Part shown: piece after piece, positions 22,090 to 63,053 of the stretch
How the letters are laid out: every line of letters begins with the position of its first letter
How positions within the stretch are numbered: position 1 is the first letter of the stretch
IMG/VR virus record: IMGVR_UViG_3300020577_003313
From: a virus
Lineage: Duplodnaviria; Caudoviricetes
Direction: 5' to 3' (one strand)
Length of the DNA stretch: 64,000 bases
Position numbers and translations under genes: made by a program
Notes under the pieces: generated by a model
Database searches by the model: none
The model's input: the letters and a program-made list of their open reading frames with translations, nothing else
What the model was told of the DNA's origin: nothing

Positions 22090-22265
22090 TGTTGAGCTGA
22101 TTCAAGTCTTTCTACCCTATACTTAAGTTCTAATATCAAATCTACAAGCTCGCAATAGTTTCTTTCCATTTGATAAAAAGTCCTAGGGTCTTTTCTTTTG
22201 AGTTCAATATCAGCTAATCTTTGTTTTTCACGGTCTGCTTCAATTAAGTCGTCGTAATGTCCCAT
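22086..22265 (-). CDS. Small hypothetical protein (59 aa, not in ORF track)
   Basis: MGHYDDLIEADREK...; ATGA overlap with the next gene. Confidence 0.55.
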   Translation of the reverse strand: MGHYDDLIEADREKQRLADIELKRKDPRTFYQMERNYCELVDLILELKYRVERLESAQQ

Positions 22266-22302
22266 TTAGTCTTTTGCCCTCGGATACTATGTCTAAAGTA
22301 AT

Positions 22303-22331
22303 AAAAAAAGAGCACCATTTCTGGTGCTCTT
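22303..22331 (-). terminator. Intrinsic terminator after nrdJ
   Basis: AAGAGCACCA-GAAA-TGGTGCTCTT hairpin followed by a T run. Confidence 0.85.
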
Positions 22332-22364
22332 AAAGTGACTCCCCACTAAGGTTACTTTTTACTT

Positions 22365-25316
22365 TTAAATGGAGCACGAGTCATTCGTGCAAAATCTTTC
22401 GCCTTTGCTCTCTTCTTTACCATCTCTCAGGTCTAATTCTCCTAGAGAATTAACATATTCATCATACTCTTGTTCTGTACAAGTTTGATACGGAGCCTGA
22501 GGATAGTTGTGATTATCCAATGGTAGGAAAGACAGAGTCTTTACATAAGGAGCGAAATATTCAATCGCGCCTAATAGATCTTTCACCTCTTCAGGTTTAA
22601 AAGTTATCGTGCAAGACACTGAGTTATCCGACCAATAATATTGTAGTTCTTTTACTAGAGTAAGCTGTTCCCATAGAGAGATGTCATACTTGCTCTTAGT
22701 AAAGTTACTTTCCCTTACAGGGAAGTAAACTACCATTGTATTCTTGTCCGTTAAAGAAGGTTCTATTCTATACCTTGCTGCTGCTAGTTTCTTTAGCAGT
22801 GGACTATTTGCGGCAACTCTAATAGTTCTCATATAGAACTCACTGTGGGTACAGTGTACACCAGGAGTCGCGCCTGCTAGTAAGCTAATAGTTCCACTAG
22901 GCTTAATAGTAGTAATCTTAAGTGATGTAGGTACGCCTAACCATCTAGAATAGATGGTATCCCAGTAATCTACAGTCTCGTAACCCTTGTCACAGAACTC
23001 AGATAGATACTTCTGAATACCAAATTTCTTAATAGCTTGCTGAATACCTGACTGAGAAGTTCCAATGCGACGATTACGGAGCATTACTTGATTAGTAGCT
23101 TCGCAGTGAGTAGGCACAAGAGTTACACTCTTCGCATACAGATACGCATACTTTAGCGTCTCGTGATAGTCTTCTGAGTTATCATGATTAGCCGGGAAAG
23201 TCTCTACTAAGCAGCACATCTCTTTGTCGTGTAGAGTCATCTCCGCGCACGGATTTACTCCAACACAATCGTCATACTTCGGATGCTTAATTTCTCTTCT
23301 TCCATCCTTAACTCGTCCAAAATGTTGGCAGTTTTCCAGTAGAATAATTCCTGGCTCACCATTCTTAGTGATGTTACCAATAATTCTGCTGAAGTTTGAA
23401 TCAGGATTTGCAGTAACAGAGTTGTTACTCATCCATCTTCTATCAGCACATTCGTCTGGATACTTTGTATAGTCTTTCATTTCTATGAACTTAGTATCTT
23501 CGATACGACCCATAGAAAGTTCGGCGCTTCTTCTTACATTACCAGCTACAACAAACTTACCGATATAATTCATGATATCGGTAATACCTACAGAATCTAA
23601 TATCTTACCATCATAGCTATCTAATAGTTTTGTGATGTTTGCGTGCCCTTCCCTTAAGGGGGCAGGACCGCTAGCTGTTCCGCCAAAGCCTTTAATAGGC
23701 GCACCTGGTCCTCTTATTTGATCATAATTGAATATGAACCATTCTTTTCTATCTTTCTGTATGTAATTATTTAGTAACAGTCTAATAGATTCTACCCAGC
23801 CTTCTCTTGAATCTGGTATAACGTAAGTAGTTAGAGGTATAGCTACATTGTAATCAGTAGGACACTTACTTATTTGTACCTTACCAGCGCCGAGTGTATC
23901 ATATCCTACACCAACACCAAGCATTAGCATGTCACAGGCCCATGCAAATGGGCCAGCAAAGTCCTTATCTATATCCTTAGTGCTAACAGTCGCACAATTA
24001 GATGTTAGTATATTATCAGCAAGAGTAAATTTTTGATATCCTGGAACAGTTGCACAATATACTATCTCTTTTCTATCTGTTTTCTCTACAGATATAACAG
24101 TCCAATATTGTAATTTTACTTCTGGATTATCTAAAAATCTTTCTCTGTGCGAATCTATTAAAAAGAAATCTTCAGTAAGTGCATTTCTATGCAAAACTAT
24201 GGACCATAACCTAGAAGGTTTGTTAGTTAAGTTAGATATTCTATCTTCTTTAGTTGGTCCATATATAGGAATACCTAAAACTGAACAAAGTTCTCTTACC
24301 TTTAAGATATTATTTTCATTTGTACTCTCTATAGAACAGCATCCAGACTTAGATACTGTACCATCAGCAGCAAAATATCCTGCTAAGAATCCATACAGAT
24401 AAGATTTATTTTCTTCTAAAGATGGAAATTCTTTAAAATAATTTGGTAGTCCGACTACTCTAATATCCTGACCTGCCTTCTGGCGGTTACAATTATTAAA
24501 ATAATCTAATAGCTGTAAGTTCTTTTCTCCACACAAAGTAACTCCGGCGGTAGCTCTTAAAGAAGCAGAAGAAAGGTTACCGTCTCCATATGTAATGCCA
24601 TGGGCTATTCCAAATGCAGAAGGGGTAATATCTTTTACTCCTTGTCCAAAGCAATATTGTAGTCTATGTATTCCCGGTCTTAATTCTACTGTAGTGAATC
24701 TAGAATAACCTTTACTTCTATATTCCTGTCTTCTATCTTTAGCAAACCAGCCATGGTCTGCTGTGGCAAATATTTCCTTTCTTAATCCAGAACGACTAAG
24801 AGTTATTTTATATAGTTCTTGGGATCCAAATGCTGTAATTGGAGCTTTTACCCACTTGCCGCCTTCTGTTAAAAGTGTAGGCTCAGTTCCTTGTAACTGA
24901 GATATTTGTTTAATGCCTTCTGAAGTAATAACTTCAGTCTCGGCAGCAAAGCAGTTATTTAGTGCAGCAGAGCCAATCCTATCTACAATAGGAGTGCCCA
25001 TAATCCACAGTCCTCTGCCAGGAGGTAGGAACTTAAAGTTCCACATCCTCTCGAACATAGCCTGTGCAGATTTTTGAGCTTTAGCAGCATCCCAAGGTAG
25101 ATGAGAATTTTTACAGTGTCTCATCTGGATAGTGAAAGAACCTTCTACACAACGCTTAATCGTGTCAAAAAATTCTTCACTAGTTCCATCTTCTTTGAGT
25201 CTTGAGTAGGTTCTCTTATAGGTAAAGTAACTGAGGGTTCCAAACCCCCAAGATGGTTGCTTACCTTGATATTTTCTTAGAAAATTTTCAGTTAATTTGA
25301 ATCTAGTTTCGGTCAT
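22365..25316 (-). CDS. nrdJ: Class II (B12-dependent) ribonucleoside-triphosphate reductase, intein-containing
   Basis: PPGRGLW, NNC, GVG, GNVRRSA, NPCAE, TIKPSGT, C-terminal CxxxxC. Confidence 0.93.
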   Translation of the reverse strand: MTETRFKLTENFLRKYQGKQPSWGFGTLSYFTYKRTYSRLKEDGTSEEFFDTIKRCVEGSFTIQMRHCKNSHLPWDAAKAQKSAQAMFERMWNFKFLPPGRGLWIMGTPIVDRIGSAALNNCFAAETEVITSEGIKQISQLQGTEPTLLTEGGKWVKAPITAFGSQELYKITLSRSGLRKEIFATADHGWFAKDRRQEYRSKGYSRFTTVELRPGIHRLQYCFGQGVKDITPSAFGIAHGITYGDGNLSSASLRATAGVTLCGEKNLQLLDYFNNCNRQKAGQDIRVVGLPNYFKEFPSLEENKSYLYGFLAGYFAADGTVSKSGCCSIESTNENNILKVRELCSVLGIPIYGPTKEDRISNLTNKPSRLWSIVLHRNALTEDFFLIDSHRERFLDNPEVKLQYWTVISVEKTDRKEIVYCATVPGYQKFTLADNILTSNCATVSTKDIDKDFAGPFAWACDMLMLGVGVGYDTLGAGKVQISKCPTDYNVAIPLTTYVIPDSREGWVESIRLLLNNYIQKDRKEWFIFNYDQIRGPGAPIKGFGGTASGPAPLREGHANITKLLDSYDGKILDSVGITDIMNYIGKFVVAGNVRRSAELSMGRIEDTKFIEMKDYTKYPDECADRRWMSNNSVTANPDSNFSRIIGNITKNGEPGIILLENCQHFGRVKDGRREIKHPKYDDCVGVNPCAEMTLHDKEMCCLVETFPANHDNSEDYHETLKYAYLYAKSVTLVPTHCEATNQVMLRNRRIGTSQSGIQQAIKKFGIQKYLSEFCDKGYETVDYWDTIYSRWLGVPTSLKITTIKPSGTISLLAGATPGVHCTHSEFYMRTIRVAANSPLLKKLAAARYRIEPSLTDKNTMVVYFPVRESNFTKSKYDISLWEQLTLVKELQYYWSDNSVSCTITFKPEEVKDLLGAIEYFAPYVKTLSFLPLDNHNYPQAPYQTCTEQEYDEYVNSLGELDLRDGKEESKGERFCTNDSCSI
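23997..24953 (-). mobile_element. Intein (319 aa) with LAGLIDADG homing endonuclease in nrdJ
   Basis: Starts CFAAETEV after AALNN, ends ILTSN before C+1; blocks GITYGDG and LAGYFAADG. Confidence 0.9.
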
Positions 25317-58235: not shown

Positions 58236-58312
58236 TGGTGGCTCGGATGGGACTTGAACCCATACTTGACTGATTTTAAGTCAGTTGCCTCTGCCAATTG
58301 GGCTACTGAGCC
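58236..58312 (-). tRNA. tRNA-Leu(TAA) with short variable loop
   Basis: GGCTCAG...ACTGA-CTTAAAA-TCAGT-CAAGT-ATGGG-TTCAAGT-CCCAT-CCGAGCC-A-CCA. Confidence 0.85.
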
Positions 58313-58313
58313 A

Positions 58314-58419
58314 TGGTAGGCCGGGTGGGACTCGAACCCACGATCATCCGCAAATCAGGCGGCTCCATTTCTGGGCCGGATTATAAATCCGGTGCATTAA
58401 CCAACTATGCTACCGGCCT
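58314..58419 (-). tRNA. tRNA-Ile(TAT) with a 34-nt two-hairpin variable region
   Basis: AGGCCGG acceptor, GCAT/ATGC D stem, CCGGA-TTTATAA-TCCGG, GTGGG-TTCGAGT-CCCAC, ACCA. Confidence 0.8.
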
Positions 58420-58685: not shown

Positions 58686-58939
58686 TCTTTTAGAACTTCT
58701 TTAAGAAAGTCTACGAAAATGTTTAAGTGATCTTCTGCGAACTTTCTGTCAATTTCTTTCGCTTCTTCAGAAAGTTCTGAGTAAGGCTTGAAATATCCTT
58801 GCCATCTAGTCACTATACTTGGGTTAAGTTCTGGATGTGCTTTTAGCACAGTCTCTGCCCAAAACCACCAGTGCTCATGAACTTTCTTTGCTAGTCTTTC
58901 TTTTAGAACTTCTTGGATAGGGTTCTTCCACTTCTTCAT
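58682..58939 (-). CDS. Hypothetical protein (RyR-repeat-like PYSELSEEAKEIDR motif)
   Basis: HE.W...PY.EL.E..K..DR. Confidence 0.55.
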   Translation of the reverse strand: MKKWKNPIQEVLKERLAKKVHEHWWFWAETVLKAHPELNPSIVTRWQGYFKPYSELSEEAKEIDRKFAEDHLNIFVDFLKEVLKE

Positions 58940-59574
58940 TGTAGTAATTTAATAGTTAACCGATCGCTCGCATAGATAAATCCATTAAGAGGATCAACTC
59001 TTAATGCTTGAGCTTCTACGAAACAATCTAAAAGCGCCGGATCCGGATACACTTGCATTACTACTGAAAAGATATCATGAAGGTAAGGACCAACCTGAAC
59101 CTGCTGCACTACCATAGGTAGTGCTAGAACATAATCCTGTGCAGAATTGACAAAAAACTCGTCGAATCCAGGAAATCCACCTGGTATTAGAGTAGAATAA
59201 GCAATAGGATAGCAACCCCAGGACCATGGTTGGTTAAACCCTATAGCAAATACAGGCATGTAAATGCCTGAAGTATTGCAGTTCAGGTAAGGACAGATAA
59301 ACCCCATACTGTAAAAGTATAGTAGACCGCCCAGGGACACCCCAAGATGTTGGGTAGGGCACCCTACAGGAGCTGGAGTATCTGTATAACACTGAATAGT
59401 CTGGGCACCAGCAATATTACTAGTTATGTATTGATGATTAGTTATCATCCCTACAGAAGTTAAATTATTCTGTGCTGAGCATGTTATTGCCAAAACTAAC
59501 GATAGAATCAATTTATTGATCATTGTATTATTCCAATTTATTCCCAGCACAAAAGAAAGCTCACTCAGGCTCAA
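58936..59574 (-). CDS. Secreted protein with a Planctomycetota-type C-terminal motif
   Basis: Signal peptide MINKLILSLVLAITCSAQ; C-terminus PDPALL...AQA..VDP...SD.L. Confidence 0.55.
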   Translation of the reverse strand: MSLSELSFVLGINWNNTMINKLILSLVLAITCSAQNNLTSVGMITNHQYITSNIAGAQTIQCYTDTPAPVGCPTQHLGVSLGGLLYFYSMGFICPYLNCNTSGIYMPVFAIGFNQPWSWGCYPIAYSTLIPGGFPGFDEFFVNSAQDYVLALPMVVQQVQVGPYLHDIFSVVMQVYPDPALLDCFVEAQALRVDPLNGFIYASDRLTIKLLQ

Positions 59575-59879
59575 GCCTGAGGAGCAGCAGCTACAGCACT
59601 AGAGAGTGAATCCGTGATTGACTGAAGACTCTGTGTAACAGAGTTGATTTCAGCTGGGCTTGGAGCACTAGCTAGCTTAGCTGTTAGACTCTGAAGGGTA
59701 GCTACAGCTTGGCCTACTGTGGCCTGTAAGGCTGTAACTTGGCTTACTAACGCTTGAAGTTCTGTGGTCATGGTTTGATCTCTTTTTTGAATTTCCCTAA
59801 GTGCTTTGAAAATATTGTCTAATCTTCTCCCAAGAGGAGCGATTAGCCAACAATACTTAGGGTTATTAAATTTGCTCAT
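59571..59879 (-). CDS. Ala/Gln-rich coiled-coil protein
   Basis: Heptad pattern. Confidence 0.6.
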   Translation of the reverse strand: MSKFNNPKYCWLIAPLGRRLDNIFKALREIQKRDQTMTTELQALVSQVTALQATVGQAVATLQSLTAKLASAPSPAEINSVTQSLQSITDSLSSAVAAAPQA

Positions 59880-59895
59880 GTTTTACTTACTGAAA

Positions 59896-59969
59896 TGGTG
59901 CCGGATAAAAGAATCGAACTTTTGATTGAGGTTTACAAAACCACTGGTATGCCACTTACCTAATCCGGC
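59896..59969 (-). tRNA. tRNA-Thr(TGT)
   Basis: GCCGGAT...GTGGT-TTTGTAA-ACCTC...AAAAG-TTCGATT-CTTTT-ATCCGGC-A-CCA. Confidence 0.85.
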
Positions 59970-59978
59970 GCAGTTAAG

Positions 59979-60170
59979 CTAGTCTATTAGAAATTTACCC
60001 GAAATCCCAAAATAATCAAGAATAGCTCTTCTAACTTCTGGAGACTGTTTTTGTGCCCATTCAATTAATTTGATTTTCTCTTTATTGCGTCCGATATCAC
60101 TAGCAATAACCCAGACACATAAGGCTGCCATAGCCACCATGAATATACAACATAAAAGCTCAATCCCCAT
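59979..60170 (-). CDS. Small membrane protein
   Basis: N-terminal TM. Confidence 0.5.
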   Translation of the reverse strand: MGIELLCCIFMVAMAALCVWVIASDIGRNKEKIKLIEWAQKQSPEVRRAILDYFGISGKFLID

Positions 60171-60351
60171 AAGGTTTTCTACCTACTTCGTATTGAAGCG
60201 CAAGAATAGGCCATGTAAAAAAGATTACAATTGATATAGCAATTAGCTCATAAACAGGAACTTTCTTATACTTTGTTTCATCAATAATTATGAAAATCGA
60301 ACTAATTAGCCAACCAAGAATCCAGACGGCCAGTCCAATGTAAAAAAGCAT
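60160..60351 (-). CDS. Small two-TM membrane protein
   Basis: Hydrophobic, FFTWPI. Confidence 0.55.
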   Translation of the reverse strand: MLFYIGLAVWILGWLISSIFIIIDETKYKKVPVYELIAISIVIFFTWPILALQYEVGRKPYGD

Positions 60352-60617
60352 TATGTTTTCCAGGTAGTGTCTGCTAGTTGTTTTCTGTCGATCCAGGGAT
60401 TTCTTCCATCACCTGATCCCCAGCATTGATTGCAGATATCCATAGTAGGTTTACTAACACCCATGCCACCTCTCCAGGTGGCACCATTTGGATAGCAACA
60501 AACACCAGATCCAAAACACTTCAAACAAGGATGCTTGATATTTCTAAGAGCCAAAAGATCATTGTATGAGTAGTTCTTATCATCTGGATTTGAAGGTATT
60601 CTAGTAAAGAATCTCAT
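60351..60617 (-). CDS. DnaJ-type CxxCxGxG Zn-finger protein
   Basis: CLKCFGSG...CNQCWGSG. Confidence 0.65.
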   Translation of the reverse strand: MRFFTRIPSNPDDKNYSYNDLLALRNIKHPCLKCFGSGVCCYPNGATWRGGMGVSKPTMDICNQCWGSGDGRNPWIDRKQLADTTWKT

Positions 60618-60633
60618 ACGGATTAAGAATTAG

Positions 60634-60860
60634 AAAAAAATAGATCGAAGCTAAATCAGTGCTAAAACTAATTTTTGAGGAATGAGTTTTAGTTGCGCAC
60701 AGGAACCGGTGAGCTAATTTCGGTGTTTATGAGATTCTGAATCATTTTACATCCTCGCCGAACGGCGATTATGCTGGTTTATTCAGATATCGTATATCAT
60801 TTATTTTTATCTAGCTTTTTCAAGCTAAATAGAAATAAGCACCGACTAGCTTCGATCTAT
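60634..60860 (-). ncRNA. Predicted structured RNA (~225 nt) closed by a ~23-bp stem and U tract
   Basis: Terminal arms 60838-60860 and 60640-60663; internal GAAA-capped hairpin and further stems; G.U pairs only on the minus strand. Confidence 0.65.
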
Positions 60861-60868
60861 AGATGTTG

Positions 60869-61309
60869 TTACTCGATATGAGTCACAACATTGTACTCGT
60901 CAATCTCGTCTTGAAGCGCGGCAATTCGCGCCTCGATATCCGAGATCATAGATGCTTGGGTTGCCTTGTCGATACCGACAAGGACATCAACATAGACTTC
61001 ACTGGAATAACTACCCTTCGGCACTGGAGTGCCACTAGTAGTCAGGCCCTTGATCAGTCCCAGGGTAGATCTAAGCTGGTCCATCCTGGCCAGCTTTTCG
61101 GCAATAGGAGCCGACGCCTTGGCAATTTTGCCCTTTAAGGTAGCCAGCTGAACACTGGCTTCTGTGTAAGAAGCATATGCCTTCTTAATGTCGGTCTTTC
61201 CGCCGACATCGTCCACTCTCTGGACGTTTTCCTTGGTAATCAACTCCTTGAGAGAGTTGATGGCCTTGAGATAGCGATTCTTTTCTTTAAGAGCTCGTGC
61301 GATGTTCAT
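60869..61309 (-). CDS. DIP1984/septicolysin-like helical protein
   Basis: MNIARALKEKNR...LATLKGKI...IAALQDEIDEYNVVTHIE matches the family N- and C-terminal pattern. Confidence 0.55.
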   Translation of the reverse strand: MNIARALKEKNRYLKAINSLKELITKENVQRVDDVGGKTDIKKAYASYTEASVQLATLKGKIAKASAPIAEKLARMDQLRSTLGLIKGLTTSGTPVPKGSYSSEVYVDVLVGIDKATQASMISDIEARIAALQDEIDEYNVVTHIE

Positions 61310-61341
61310 ATAAACGTGATATGTGTATATTATTATTTATG

Positions 61342-61421
61342 TGGTCCCTAGGGTGGGAATTGAACCCACATGTATCCAATTAACCTTTCTATCGCGTATC
61401 AGGCGAAGGGTATACCTAGGG
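61342..61421 (-). tRNA. Atypical D-armless tRNA-Ile(GAT)-like gene
   Basis: CCCTAGG/CCTAGGG acceptor, TCGC-CTGATAC-GCGA, GTGGG-TTCAATT-CCCAC, A-CCA; no D arm 5' of the anticodon. Confidence 0.65.
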
Positions 61422-61428
61422 TAAAACT

Positions 61429-61899
61429 ATGAATCAATGTCAAAATAAAGACTGCAACAAAGAGACTAAAAATCCAAGATTTTGCTCAAAATCCTGTTCT
61501 GCAATAGTAACAGGATCAGAAAGTCATAAACGAAAAAGAACTAAAACTTGTAAAGTATGTAGTGCTTTAATTACGTCAGAAAAAACTTTCTGTAGTAATC
61601 TCTGTTACTCTAAAGGTAGAGCAAAACGAAGAACTACTAAGCCAATTGGTTATGAGAGAGTAAAAAATTTCAGAGCTAGATTGAAGCAACAAAGTATTGA
61701 CTACAAAGGCGGAAAATGTAGTATTTGTGCTTACTCTAAATGTACAAAAGCTCTTGAGTTTCACCATTTAGATCCTACTCAAAAGGATTTTGTAATCAGT
61801 AGTGTTTCTAAATCATTTGAAGCAATAAAATATGAACTAGATAAGTGTATTTTAGTTTGTGCAAATTGTCATAGAGAAATACATGACAAAATGCTCTAA
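61429..61899 (+). CDS. Free-standing HNH endonuclease
   Basis: FCSKSC/FCSNLC fingers, GGKCSIC, LEFHH.DP..K, CILVCANCHREIH. Confidence 0.88.
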   Translation: MNQCQNKDCNKETKNPRFCSKSCSAIVTGSESHKRKRTKTCKVCSALITSEKTFCSNLCYSKGRAKRRTTKPIGYERVKNFRARLKQQSIDYKGGKCSICAYSKCTKALEFHHLDPTQKDFVISSVSKSFEAIKYELDKCILVCANCHREIHDKML

Positions 61900-61918
61900 C
61901 CAACTGAGCTACCCAGGG
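61892..61918 (-). pseudogene. Orphan 5' half of a canonical tRNA (acceptor strand + D arm)
   Basis: CCCTGGG-TA-GCTC-AGTTGGTTA-GAGC-A; pairs with the 3' acceptor strand at 61346-61352. Confidence 0.75.
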
Positions 61919-61932
61919 TTAAGAAGAAGTCC

Positions 61933-62523
61933 TTAGACTTCTTCGATCACTTCGAAACTGTCATTGTCGAAGATGGTAAGACTAACGTTCTTAGTCTTAA
62001 GTTCGTGAAACCTTCTGAAGGTATTGATGATACTCTTCAGTTCCTTCATCTTAGCTTTGATGAACTTTTCTCCCTTTACCTTTTCCTTAAGGTTCTTGGA
62101 GACATAGTTAGTTCGCTCATATCCGAGATCATCGAGCATGATCACGAAATCTGAGTGAGACATTCCACTGTTCAAACAATTGAGAATTGTAGCTTGATTG
62201 TTCTTGAAGAACGTGCTGTGCTGAATCTTAGCACAGATCTCAATGCAGCTAAGCTTAGCTGCGTTGTAGTTTACCTTGTGGTCATTGAGGAACTTACCCC
62301 AAATATAACAACGAGGCGCGCTGATCTTGTACCTAGCCTGAAGGGCTAGACACAGCGAATTAACAGTGTGGGGGGTTTGACCTTCGAGCATACCTTCAAC
62401 GAAGGTATAGACTGCCGTGCAGAGGGTACGCCAAGAATTACGCTCCTGTCTATGCGCAACCTTGTAAATTCGTGCAGCGTCTTCGATCTTAGTTAGAAGT
62501 TCGTTCTTAACGAGAGTCGTCAT
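61933..62523 (-). CDS. Hypothetical protein
   Basis: 196-aa ORF, elevated GC3. Confidence 0.65.
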   Translation of the reverse strand: MTTLVKNELLTKIEDAARIYKVAHRQERNSWRTLCTAVYTFVEGMLEGQTPHTVNSLCLALQARYKISAPRCYIWGKFLNDHKVNYNAAKLSCIEICAKIQHSTFFKNNQATILNCLNSGMSHSDFVIMLDDLGYERTNYVSKNLKEKVKGEKFIKAKMKELKSIINTFRRFHELKTKNVSLTIFDNDSFEVIEEV

Positions 62524-62526
62524 ATT

Positions 62527-62721
62527 TTAAGTATCTAGAAATTTCTCTATATCGTTGATAGGAATGTATCCTAAATGATAAAGCCTATCAGCAATTACCT
62601 TTTTAACAGCATTAGCATCTAGGTTCCTTTCAGATAGATATTCATAAATATCTAAAAGTTCTTCCTTGATGTCTTGAGGCTTATTGAAAGGCCAATTGTG
62701 ATCTTTATCCATTAGGTCCAT
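62527..62721 (-). CDS. Hypothetical protein
   Basis: ORF packing. Confidence 0.5.
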   Translation of the reverse strand: MDLMDKDHNWPFNKPQDIKEELLDIYEYLSERNLDANAVKKVIADRLYHLGYIPINDIEKFLDT

Positions 62722-63053
62722 AAGTGAAAGAAAATTTCTGAAAAAGCTTGCAGCCCTTCGTCAATTTCTTTATTTCCTGCTTTAACGAGAGGATCATAGT
62801 AATTTTCCATTGAGTTCAGAAAATTAAACACTCTCTTGGCTAATTTTAGCTTTCTTTGAAACTCTGGATCTGGGCATGCATGTTCAAAAGCATTCAATCT
62901 TGGAGCGATGAATCTGACGAAAGTTTCATCAAGATTCCATAGCTCGGTATCATCAAAGCCGCGCTTCTTTAGTTGCTTCCTATATTTCTTGATTCTTTTA
63001 TCATTCTTTGGAAGGGTATGGAGATACCCATGGTATCTAACTGGCTTTTTCAT
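62712..63053 (-). CDS. Conserved phage hypothetical protein
   Basis: RGFDDTELWNLD..FIAPRL...LW. Confidence 0.65.
   Translation of the reverse strand: MKKPVRYHGYLHTLPKNDKRIKKYRKQLKKRGFDDTELWNLDETFVRFIAPRLNAFEHACPDPEFQRKLKLAKRVFNFLNSMENYYDPLVKAGNKEIDEGLQAFSEIFFHLWT

Follow-up and report, generated by a model that had tools for sequence, protein, structure and literature searches.

Is the long folded RNA that directly follows a small gene of a large phage the partner of the encoded protein, or just the end of its mRNA? The window analysed here, a stretch of 64,000 nucleotides, lies on a 176.6-kb contig and carries primase-helicase, ribonucleotide reductase, DNA polymerase, NAMPT and tRNA genes, i.e. 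it is a replication and nucleotide-metabolism region, and the locus itself sits in the tRNA region of the phage. An earlier note on this DNA had described a 146-aa gene of the DIP1984 type followed by a multi-stem RNA and had read the two as a protein-RNA system. Our analysis confirms the observation and partly supports the interpretation. On balance we think it probable, with much room for doubt, that the gene and the RNA behind it form a single two-part module, in which the RNA would be the co-transcribed non-coding partner of the protein and both together would make a ribonucleoprotein.

The ORF-free gap that holds the RNA had been counted among the longest non-coding gaps of the window, and with ORFs of at least 60 aa it indeed ranks second by length; the longest gap is an ordinary terminator region (fold z -0.75). 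The C/G-rich codons of the gene, from which high expression had been suggested, are likewise real (GC3 0.56 vs a median of 0.35 in long minus-strand ORFs), yet this compositional bias is no demonstration of high expression. Coordinates of all features are given in Table 1.

Table 1. Features of the locus and of its wider surroundings; positions are those of the window.
Feature	Position	Strand	Remarks
196-aa ORF	61933-62523		GC3 also high (0.54); parted from the 146-aa gene by the HNH/tRNA stretch
HNH/tRNA stretch	61342-61918		immediately upstream of the 146-aa gene; tRNA-like gene (Rfam 31.5 bits), HNH endonuclease ORF, 5' half of a tRNA
HNH endonuclease ORF	61429-61899	+	
146-aa gene	60869-61309	-	
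stop codon of the 146-aa gene	60869-60871	-	TAA
ORF-free gap	60618-60862		second longest in the window
folded RNA, about 221 nt	60640-60860	-	plus U tail
P1 closing helix, 5' arm	60838-60860	-	AUAGAUCGAAGCUAG-UCGGUGCU; begins 8 nt past the stop codon
hairpin A, GAAA loop	60808-60831	-	UAUUUAGCUU-GAAA-AAGCUAGAUA; MFE and centroid folds
AAUAAAUGAUAUACGAUA	60788-60805	-	weak counterpart of the family's tandem GAUAAYG units; placed by MAFFT and in the R2 alignment
segmented arm	60736-60787	-	UCUGAAU/AUUCAGA + GCAU/AUGU + UCGCC/GGCGA; MFE and centroid folds
extra segment	60705-60724	-	possible ACCG/CGGU stem (absent from MFE); insertion relative to the family model
CUAAAACUCAUUCCUCAAAAAUUAG	60668-60692	-	sole block resembling the family's heptad rail (local alignment); its UUAG end adjoins the P1 3' arm
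P1 closing helix, 3' arm	60640-60663	-	AGCACUGA-U-UUAGCUUCGAUCUAU; 174 nt downstream of the 5' arm
U run, seven U	60634-60640	-	first U doubles as last base of P1
88-aa cysteine-rich ORF	60351-60617	-	begins 16 nt past the U run
103-nt tRNA	58317-58419	-	Rfam, 65 bits
tRNA-Leu(UAA)	58236-58312	-	anticodon loop CUUAAAA
ribonucleotide reductase ORF	22365-25316	-	983 aa; PHROG match begins at residue 440
longest ORF-free gap	22090-22364		

The RNA is closed by P1, a helix of 23 bp with two G.U pairs and one bulged U, which encloses 174 nt of hairpins. This long closing helix with a U tract behind it had been proposed from the letters, and it holds up well: the RNA has an MFE of -76.8 kcal/mol vs -40.3 +/- 4.5 in dinucleotide shuffles (z -8.2), and 0/200 shuffles are as good. 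Of the inner helices proposed along with it, hairpin A, the segmented arm and the AAAACU/AGUUUU stem (CUAAAAC with GUUUUAG) are present in both the MFE and the centroid fold, whereas the ACCG/CGGU stem is possible but lies outside the MFE fold. Within the segmented arm, UCUGAAU/AUUCAGA encloses GCAU/AUGU and hairpin B (UCGCC-GUUC-GGCGA). Hairpin A repeats the P1-arm words AAGCUAG and UUUAGCUU, with two occurrences each, which allows two alternative ways of pairing, one nested and one side by side; since this word repeat is absent in two related loci (L033, L038), it may have arisen by local duplication or may act as a folding switch. The element has no second copy within the window, TRF at a minimum score of 30 finds no tandem repeats in the RNA, and Rfam 15 at gathering threshold reports only tRNAs in the window.

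The main rival explanation is a purely cis-acting 3' UTR: clamp and U run would terminate the transcript and shield the mRNA from 3' exonucleases, the protein might bind its own message and so regulate itself, and there would be no free RNA and no particle. We consider this unlikely, though by no means negligible. The start of P1 right behind the stop codon, the U run that follows and the lack of room for a separate promoter all suit a UTR, and the U run is probably a 3' end or a terminator tail. On the other side, the window RNA does not have the make-up of a simple intrinsic terminator (short G+C-rich hairpin, loop of 3-8 nt, U run), and a consensus terminator scan makes no call at 60634-60640 because the 'loop' would be 174 nt.

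Proteins of the DIP1984/DUF6847 family have a solved structure and no known function; they occur in bacteria, on plasmids and in many large phages and are often annotated as 'septicolysin'. An AF2 model of the 146-aa protein (83 relatives, pLDDT 96.5) predicts three long helices along with a small beta hairpin. Its best solved match in Foldseek is 3kdq_A (TM 0.81/0.78, probability 1.00), from the Corynebacterium diphtheriae crystal structure 3KDQ, and the profile of the protein is collinear with the 3KDQ chain from end to end (1-145 to 4-153). NCBIfam NF038048 (DIP1984 family) gives a full-length match that at 25.3 bits (E 1.3e-5) stays below the curated cut-off of 70 bits, and PF20935 (DUF6847) gives no match; beyond this, Pfam and PHROGs hold nothing significant for the protein itself. 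The family assignment made earlier thus stands at the level of the fold but not at that of the curated sequence models: judged by its modelled fold, the protein is a remote viral-branch relative of the DIP1984 family, outside the curated sequence thresholds.

Its relatives agree with this placement. NF038048 is matched by 19/19 of the relatives examined and PF20935, at E <= 1, by seven of these; the clusters closest to the window protein in the ESM Atlas are viral, and 19-23% of their members have PF20935 assigned. An exhaustive search at E <= 1e-3 yielded 663 representative relatives, the closest of which (P0002 and P0020) are 42-43% identical to the window protein. All invariant or near-invariant residues of the family (K8, K10, N28, K59, Q133, D134, D137, N140) are kept in the window protein, and the antiparallel three-helix topology of the model would bring the conserved polar residues close together in the fold. 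Searches by tblastn against GenBank phages found a relative in one uncultured huge phage only, and among the GTDB species genomes only three MAG contigs carry relatives. In phage T5 (NC_005859) no relative was found by PF20935 or by the 83-sequence profile, both of which a fold-level relative could escape.

If the RNA belongs to the protein, it should accompany homologous genes. Loci were drawn from IMG/VR (26), MAG contigs (3) and metagenomes (41), and after redundant and truncated ones had been dropped, 61 non-redundant loci remained, whose homologous genes are 23-37% identical to the window protein. The genome of one of them (L034) is flagged as unpublished, and no statement made here rests on that locus alone. 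Of the neighbouring gene families none is found in more than 11 of the 61 loci. The one neighbour that is conserved is a stretch of non-coding DNA behind the gene and on its strand, typically 150-680 nt long and present in nearly all loci, so that the linkage of gene and RNA is exclusive. In nearly every locus a helix starts 0-20 nt past the stop codon and its partner ends at about +170 to +260. The sequences of the P1 arms are unrelated between loci, but their pairing is preserved: the first 60 nt past the stop codon pair with the downstream region of their own locus at a mean of -29.3 kcal/mol vs -21.4 with that of another locus (Wilcoxon p 2e-10).

Between the arms the relatives share a core. 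In a MAFFT alignment of 34 end-trimmed RNAs it consists of two or three GAUAAYG-type units, a short hairpin and about eight A-rich units at a spacing of 7 nt, which we call the rail. The spacing is also evident from counts of AA dinucleotides that co-occur in 43 RNAs (370 at lag 7 vs 122-197 at lags 3-5 and 9-12), with lag 7 being the strongest in 30 of them. A sequence-only model of the core built from 29 loci (R1) finds the core in 22/28 held-out loci, with every best match located behind the gene and on its strand. A full-length sequence-and-structure model of 213 positions built from four close loci (R2) recovers 14 further loci. In the R2 alignment (14 rows) 85% of the cells are paired vs 63% in shuffles (0/500 as high) and 36-48% in slid controls, and changes on both sides are found in 28/36 modelled pairs, including 14/14 in the outer helix and 7/8 in the next; as the alignment is model-fitted and has just 14 rows, these covariation counts lean towards structure. 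Column statistics give at most 0.67 pairing for a universal inner helix P2, the support for which is limited to the model-fitted R2 alignment. RNAalifold reports no structure for a plain MAFFT alignment of the 34 full RNAs, because the unrelated arm sequences misalign. Rfam at permissive E-values has nothing that covers the RNA region in 19 phage loci, and a further search of 20 loci at gathering threshold finds only tRNAs. A structured region downstream of homologues had been named in the earlier note as a test of its reading; as the region found there is conserved, non-coding and covarying, this test comes out in favour.

The same data bear on the 3' UTR. Linkage to the gene suits a UTR as well as a partner RNA, and the same conservation would be expected of either. 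However, termination needs far less than an RNA of 220 nt that has conserved inner motifs and a 7-nt rail, and a U run follows P1 in only about one third of the loci (as read from the listed tails). In addition, tRNA genes stand directly behind several copies, which suggests processing rather than termination.

A further alternative would place the function in the DNA, as origin iterons, a recombination site or a small mobile element with 23-bp terminal inverted repeats. Short direct and inverted repeats are typical of origins, the window lies in a region of replication genes, and the opposite strand of the window RNA folds almost as well (-75.3 kcal/mol, z -5.9). The sense strand is just 1.5 kcal/mol more stable, and energy alone is therefore weak strand evidence in the window copy. 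Across the loci the sense strand is favoured, folding better than antisense in 29/44 RNAs (p 0.007). Because the orientation of the motif is fixed to the gene in every R1 best match among the held-out loci, G.U pairs are used and the arms covary with their pairing kept, we regard a DNA-level element as very improbable; its single occurrence in the window argues in the same direction.

Two loci show unusual arrangements. In L037 (1950-2760) the rail core lies about 750 nt past the gene, preceded by folded G+C-rich sequence, a hairpin resembling a T-arm and a gene for tRNA-Lys, and the module can therefore be split by insertions. In L064 (2193-2586) ARAGORN makes a tmRNA-like call directly downstream of the DIP1984-like gene, and R1 finds no rail.

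How well does the window copy itself fit this family? It shares with the family its position, strand and length, a clamp that starts no more than 8 nt from the stop codon, and the order of the elements: the clamp is followed by hairpin A, a UAAYG-like stretch, the arm that bears hairpin B and an A-rich block with UUAG at its end, and then by the clamp again. It thus follows the gene immediately on its 3' side and in the same orientation, with ends that form a long closing helix, and it lacks both the A-rich units at 7-nt spacing and a match to R1. Over the 64 kb R1 has no match; with filters off its best hit (4.8 bits, E 0.16, on 60669-60690) is not significant. Periodicity is absent as well, lag 7 being observed twice vs 2.9 times in shuffles. 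What is left of the rail is the block CUAAAACUCAUUCCUCAAAAAUUAG, of which about 24 nt align to the rail of one relative (L031; z 6.6, 0/200 shuffles); with the rail of L007, the closest protein relative among the loci, it agrees at 17/20 positions, which is not significant (z 2.1). R2 misses the window RNA under default filters. With filters off, 60635-60858 (minus strand) comes out as its best match within 59000-63000; the alignment covers 1-213 of 213 positions at a low score of 12.5 bits, which corresponds to E 0.08 for the 8 kb searched, R2 E-values being rough; as place and strand were fixed beforehand, we read this match as moderate support. In the same alignment UCUGAAU/AUUCAGA of the segmented arm falls on the family's P2.

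It might be argued that the window element is not homologous to the heptad-rail RNA at all, but a structured insert or terminator of unrelated origin that stands at this place by chance. The failure of R1, the missing lag-7 signal and the confinement of sequence similarity to one block of about 24 nt are what such a scenario predicts. It would, however, leave the agreement in position, strand, length, closing-helix design and element order to coincidence, and it must also face the end-to-end R2 match as the best of the region, the block match to L031 and a protein that is intact and conserved. We hold it to be quite improbable. To judge from the aligned sequences, the window RNA is probably a strongly diverged family member whose rail has mostly been replaced by an extra hairpin region (60705-60724 and surroundings). 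With clamp and position kept while the rail is nearly gone, this copy helps to tell which parts are essential.

Among known systems, the protein side leads to the DIP1984 family (NF038048/PF20935/3KDQ), with which the window protein shares the fold and a collinear full-length profile alignment and whose Clostridia members also have a downstream RNA stretch; it differs in falling under both curated cut-offs and in belonging to a viral branch. On the RNA side, the closest design is that of Ro60 (Rsr) with bacterial Y RNAs such as YrlA, where the RNA gene adjoins that of the protein partner and the RNA ends form a long stem (PMC4201824). Y RNAs hold a functional module inside the stem and occur in phages and near tRNA-related genes (PMC4201824). 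Clamp-plus-module design, neighbouring protein gene and phage/tRNA setting are common to both systems, and Clostridia RNAs carry a T-arm-like GGUUCGAnUCC. In contrast, the protein here is a helical bundle instead of a TROVE ring, and no tRNA-like domain is visible in the window copy; Y_RNA and YrlA models at E <= 10 have no match in 60560-60900, and there is no TROVE (Ro60) protein among the neighbouring ORFs scanned (58936-62523).

Regularly spaced sites are known from TRAP, whose ring binds 11 (G/U)AG repeats (PMC3064811), and from HutP, which binds two XAG-rich sites (PMC2425495). The YAA-containing units of the family, repeated about eight times at a fixed spacing of 7 nt, are similar in kind, with one site per oligomer subunit to be expected. 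Unlike TRAP and HutP, the family uses another triplet, an unrelated protein fold and a 3' element instead of a 5' leader attenuator, and the window copy is without periodicity. The module of DIP1984 gene and RNA accordingly fits none of TRAP, HutP and Ro60-Y RNA, each of which fails a defining test. ROOL and GOLLD, ornate conserved RNAs of phages and prophages with uncatalogued function, are likewise often found near tRNA genes (PMC5737381; bioRxiv 10.1101/2024.12.08.627333). They measure 580-800 nt vs about 220 nt here, however, and the RNA of the present family is bound to one specific protein gene and has no Rfam match.

The earlier note had also suggested a type III-like RNA antitoxin, i.e. 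a pair in which the RNA would neutralize a toxic protein. In type III toxin-antitoxin systems (ToxIN class) the antitoxin, encoded upstream of the toxin gene, is built of tandem repeats of about 34-45 nt, and the toxin is an endoribonuclease of the ToxN/AbiQ type. Only the general layout, a small protein gene that adjoins a structured RNA, is alike. Repeat structure, gene order and protein family all differ: tandem repeats are absent, the RNA follows the gene instead of preceding it, and the helical-bundle protein has no ToxN/AbiQ-type match in Pfam, PHROGs or PADLOC, the last giving a single row, a weak partial LmuB match (E 0.005), and thus no defence-family match. The suggestion is not supported by our data, and we rank it as the least probable explanation.

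The partner-RNA reading, which we prefer, can be put as a sequence of steps. The RNA would be made on the transcript of the 146-aa gene; the 23-bp P1 would clamp its 5' and 3' ends and, with the U run, set and protect the 3' end. The folded body, presumably released as a discrete RNA, would then be bound directly by the DIP1984-fold protein to give a ribonucleoprotein. In most relatives the A-rich units, about eight of them exactly 7 nt apart, may offer an oligomer a series of identical docking sites; by analogy, such even spacing is the layout to be expected for repeated docking of identical subunits. In the window copy this rail would be reduced to one 25-nt block.

A gene-plus-RNA pair that recurs in dozens of distant phages and belongs to no catalogued RNA family is probably an undescribed protein-RNA particle. 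In titles and abstracts of the literature, DUF6847, DIP1984 and septicolysin serve as annotations only and are not linked to RNA, and Rfam 15 holds no corresponding family; as far as these sources go, the module therefore appears undescribed. Should the proposal be true, a dedicated covarying RNA partner would be the first functional handle on DIP1984/DUF6847 and a new RNA class among the few bacterial and phage ribonucleoproteins. We offer a wider reading only tentatively, as possible rather than probable: a widespread undescribed ribonucleoprotein of large phages and bacteria, with subunits on spaced units, which may act on tRNA, translation or RNA repair or serve as a decoy for a host factor.

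The bacterial side of this reading draws on a sample of 300 Clostridia genomes, 12 of which carry the gene above the NF038048 cut-off. A conserved non-coding stretch of about 200 nt follows the gene in 11 of these 12 loci, and the linkage of gene and RNA therefore reaches bona fide members of the family. The RNA sequences differ between the phage and the Clostridia branch: R1 finds nothing in the Clostridia loci, and Rfam at permissive E-values has no matches at all in the 12 loci. The Clostridia RNAs (L078-L088) instead show UAAAGUN-type units and, on the 3' side, the G-rich motif GAGGGUGGGnnnGGGG; several of these loci also have the T-arm-like GGUUCGAnUCC.

The immediate surroundings of the window copy hold several further peculiarities. 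This diverged phage example lies within a tRNA cluster and comes right behind an HNH-plus-tRNA cassette. The 196-aa ORF beyond this cassette is unrelated to the upstream ORFs of about 190 aa in other loci. On the far side of the RNA, the 88-aa cysteine-rich ORF has no family match in Pfam, PHROGs or PADLOC, and Pfam and PHROGs give no match for either of the two 63-aa ORFs that come after it. At the DNA level, only a tRNA-like piece is similar to GenBank phages. Elsewhere in the window, about 440 N-terminal residues of the ribonucleotide reductase ORF are unexplained by its PHROG match, and the 103-nt tRNA, which ARAGORN does not call, apparently has a long insertion or variable region.

Transfer RNA genes are a recurrent feature near the module. 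They occur on the same strand within 1.5 kb in 14/59 loci scanned, the window included, and in L037 five tRNA-Leu genes lie just upstream of the DIP1984-like gene. It is only this neighbourhood that suggests a role in tRNA-related or RNA-quality-related work. The common rail units CUUAAAA and CUCAAAA have the very sequence that the 7-nt anticodon loop of a tRNA-Leu(YAA) should have. This match of short sequences is a resemblance only; from it, one could imagine that a nuclease or a modification enzyme takes the rail for anticodon loops. The phage's own tRNA-Leu(UAA) carries one of the two heptamers as its anticodon loop (Table 1).
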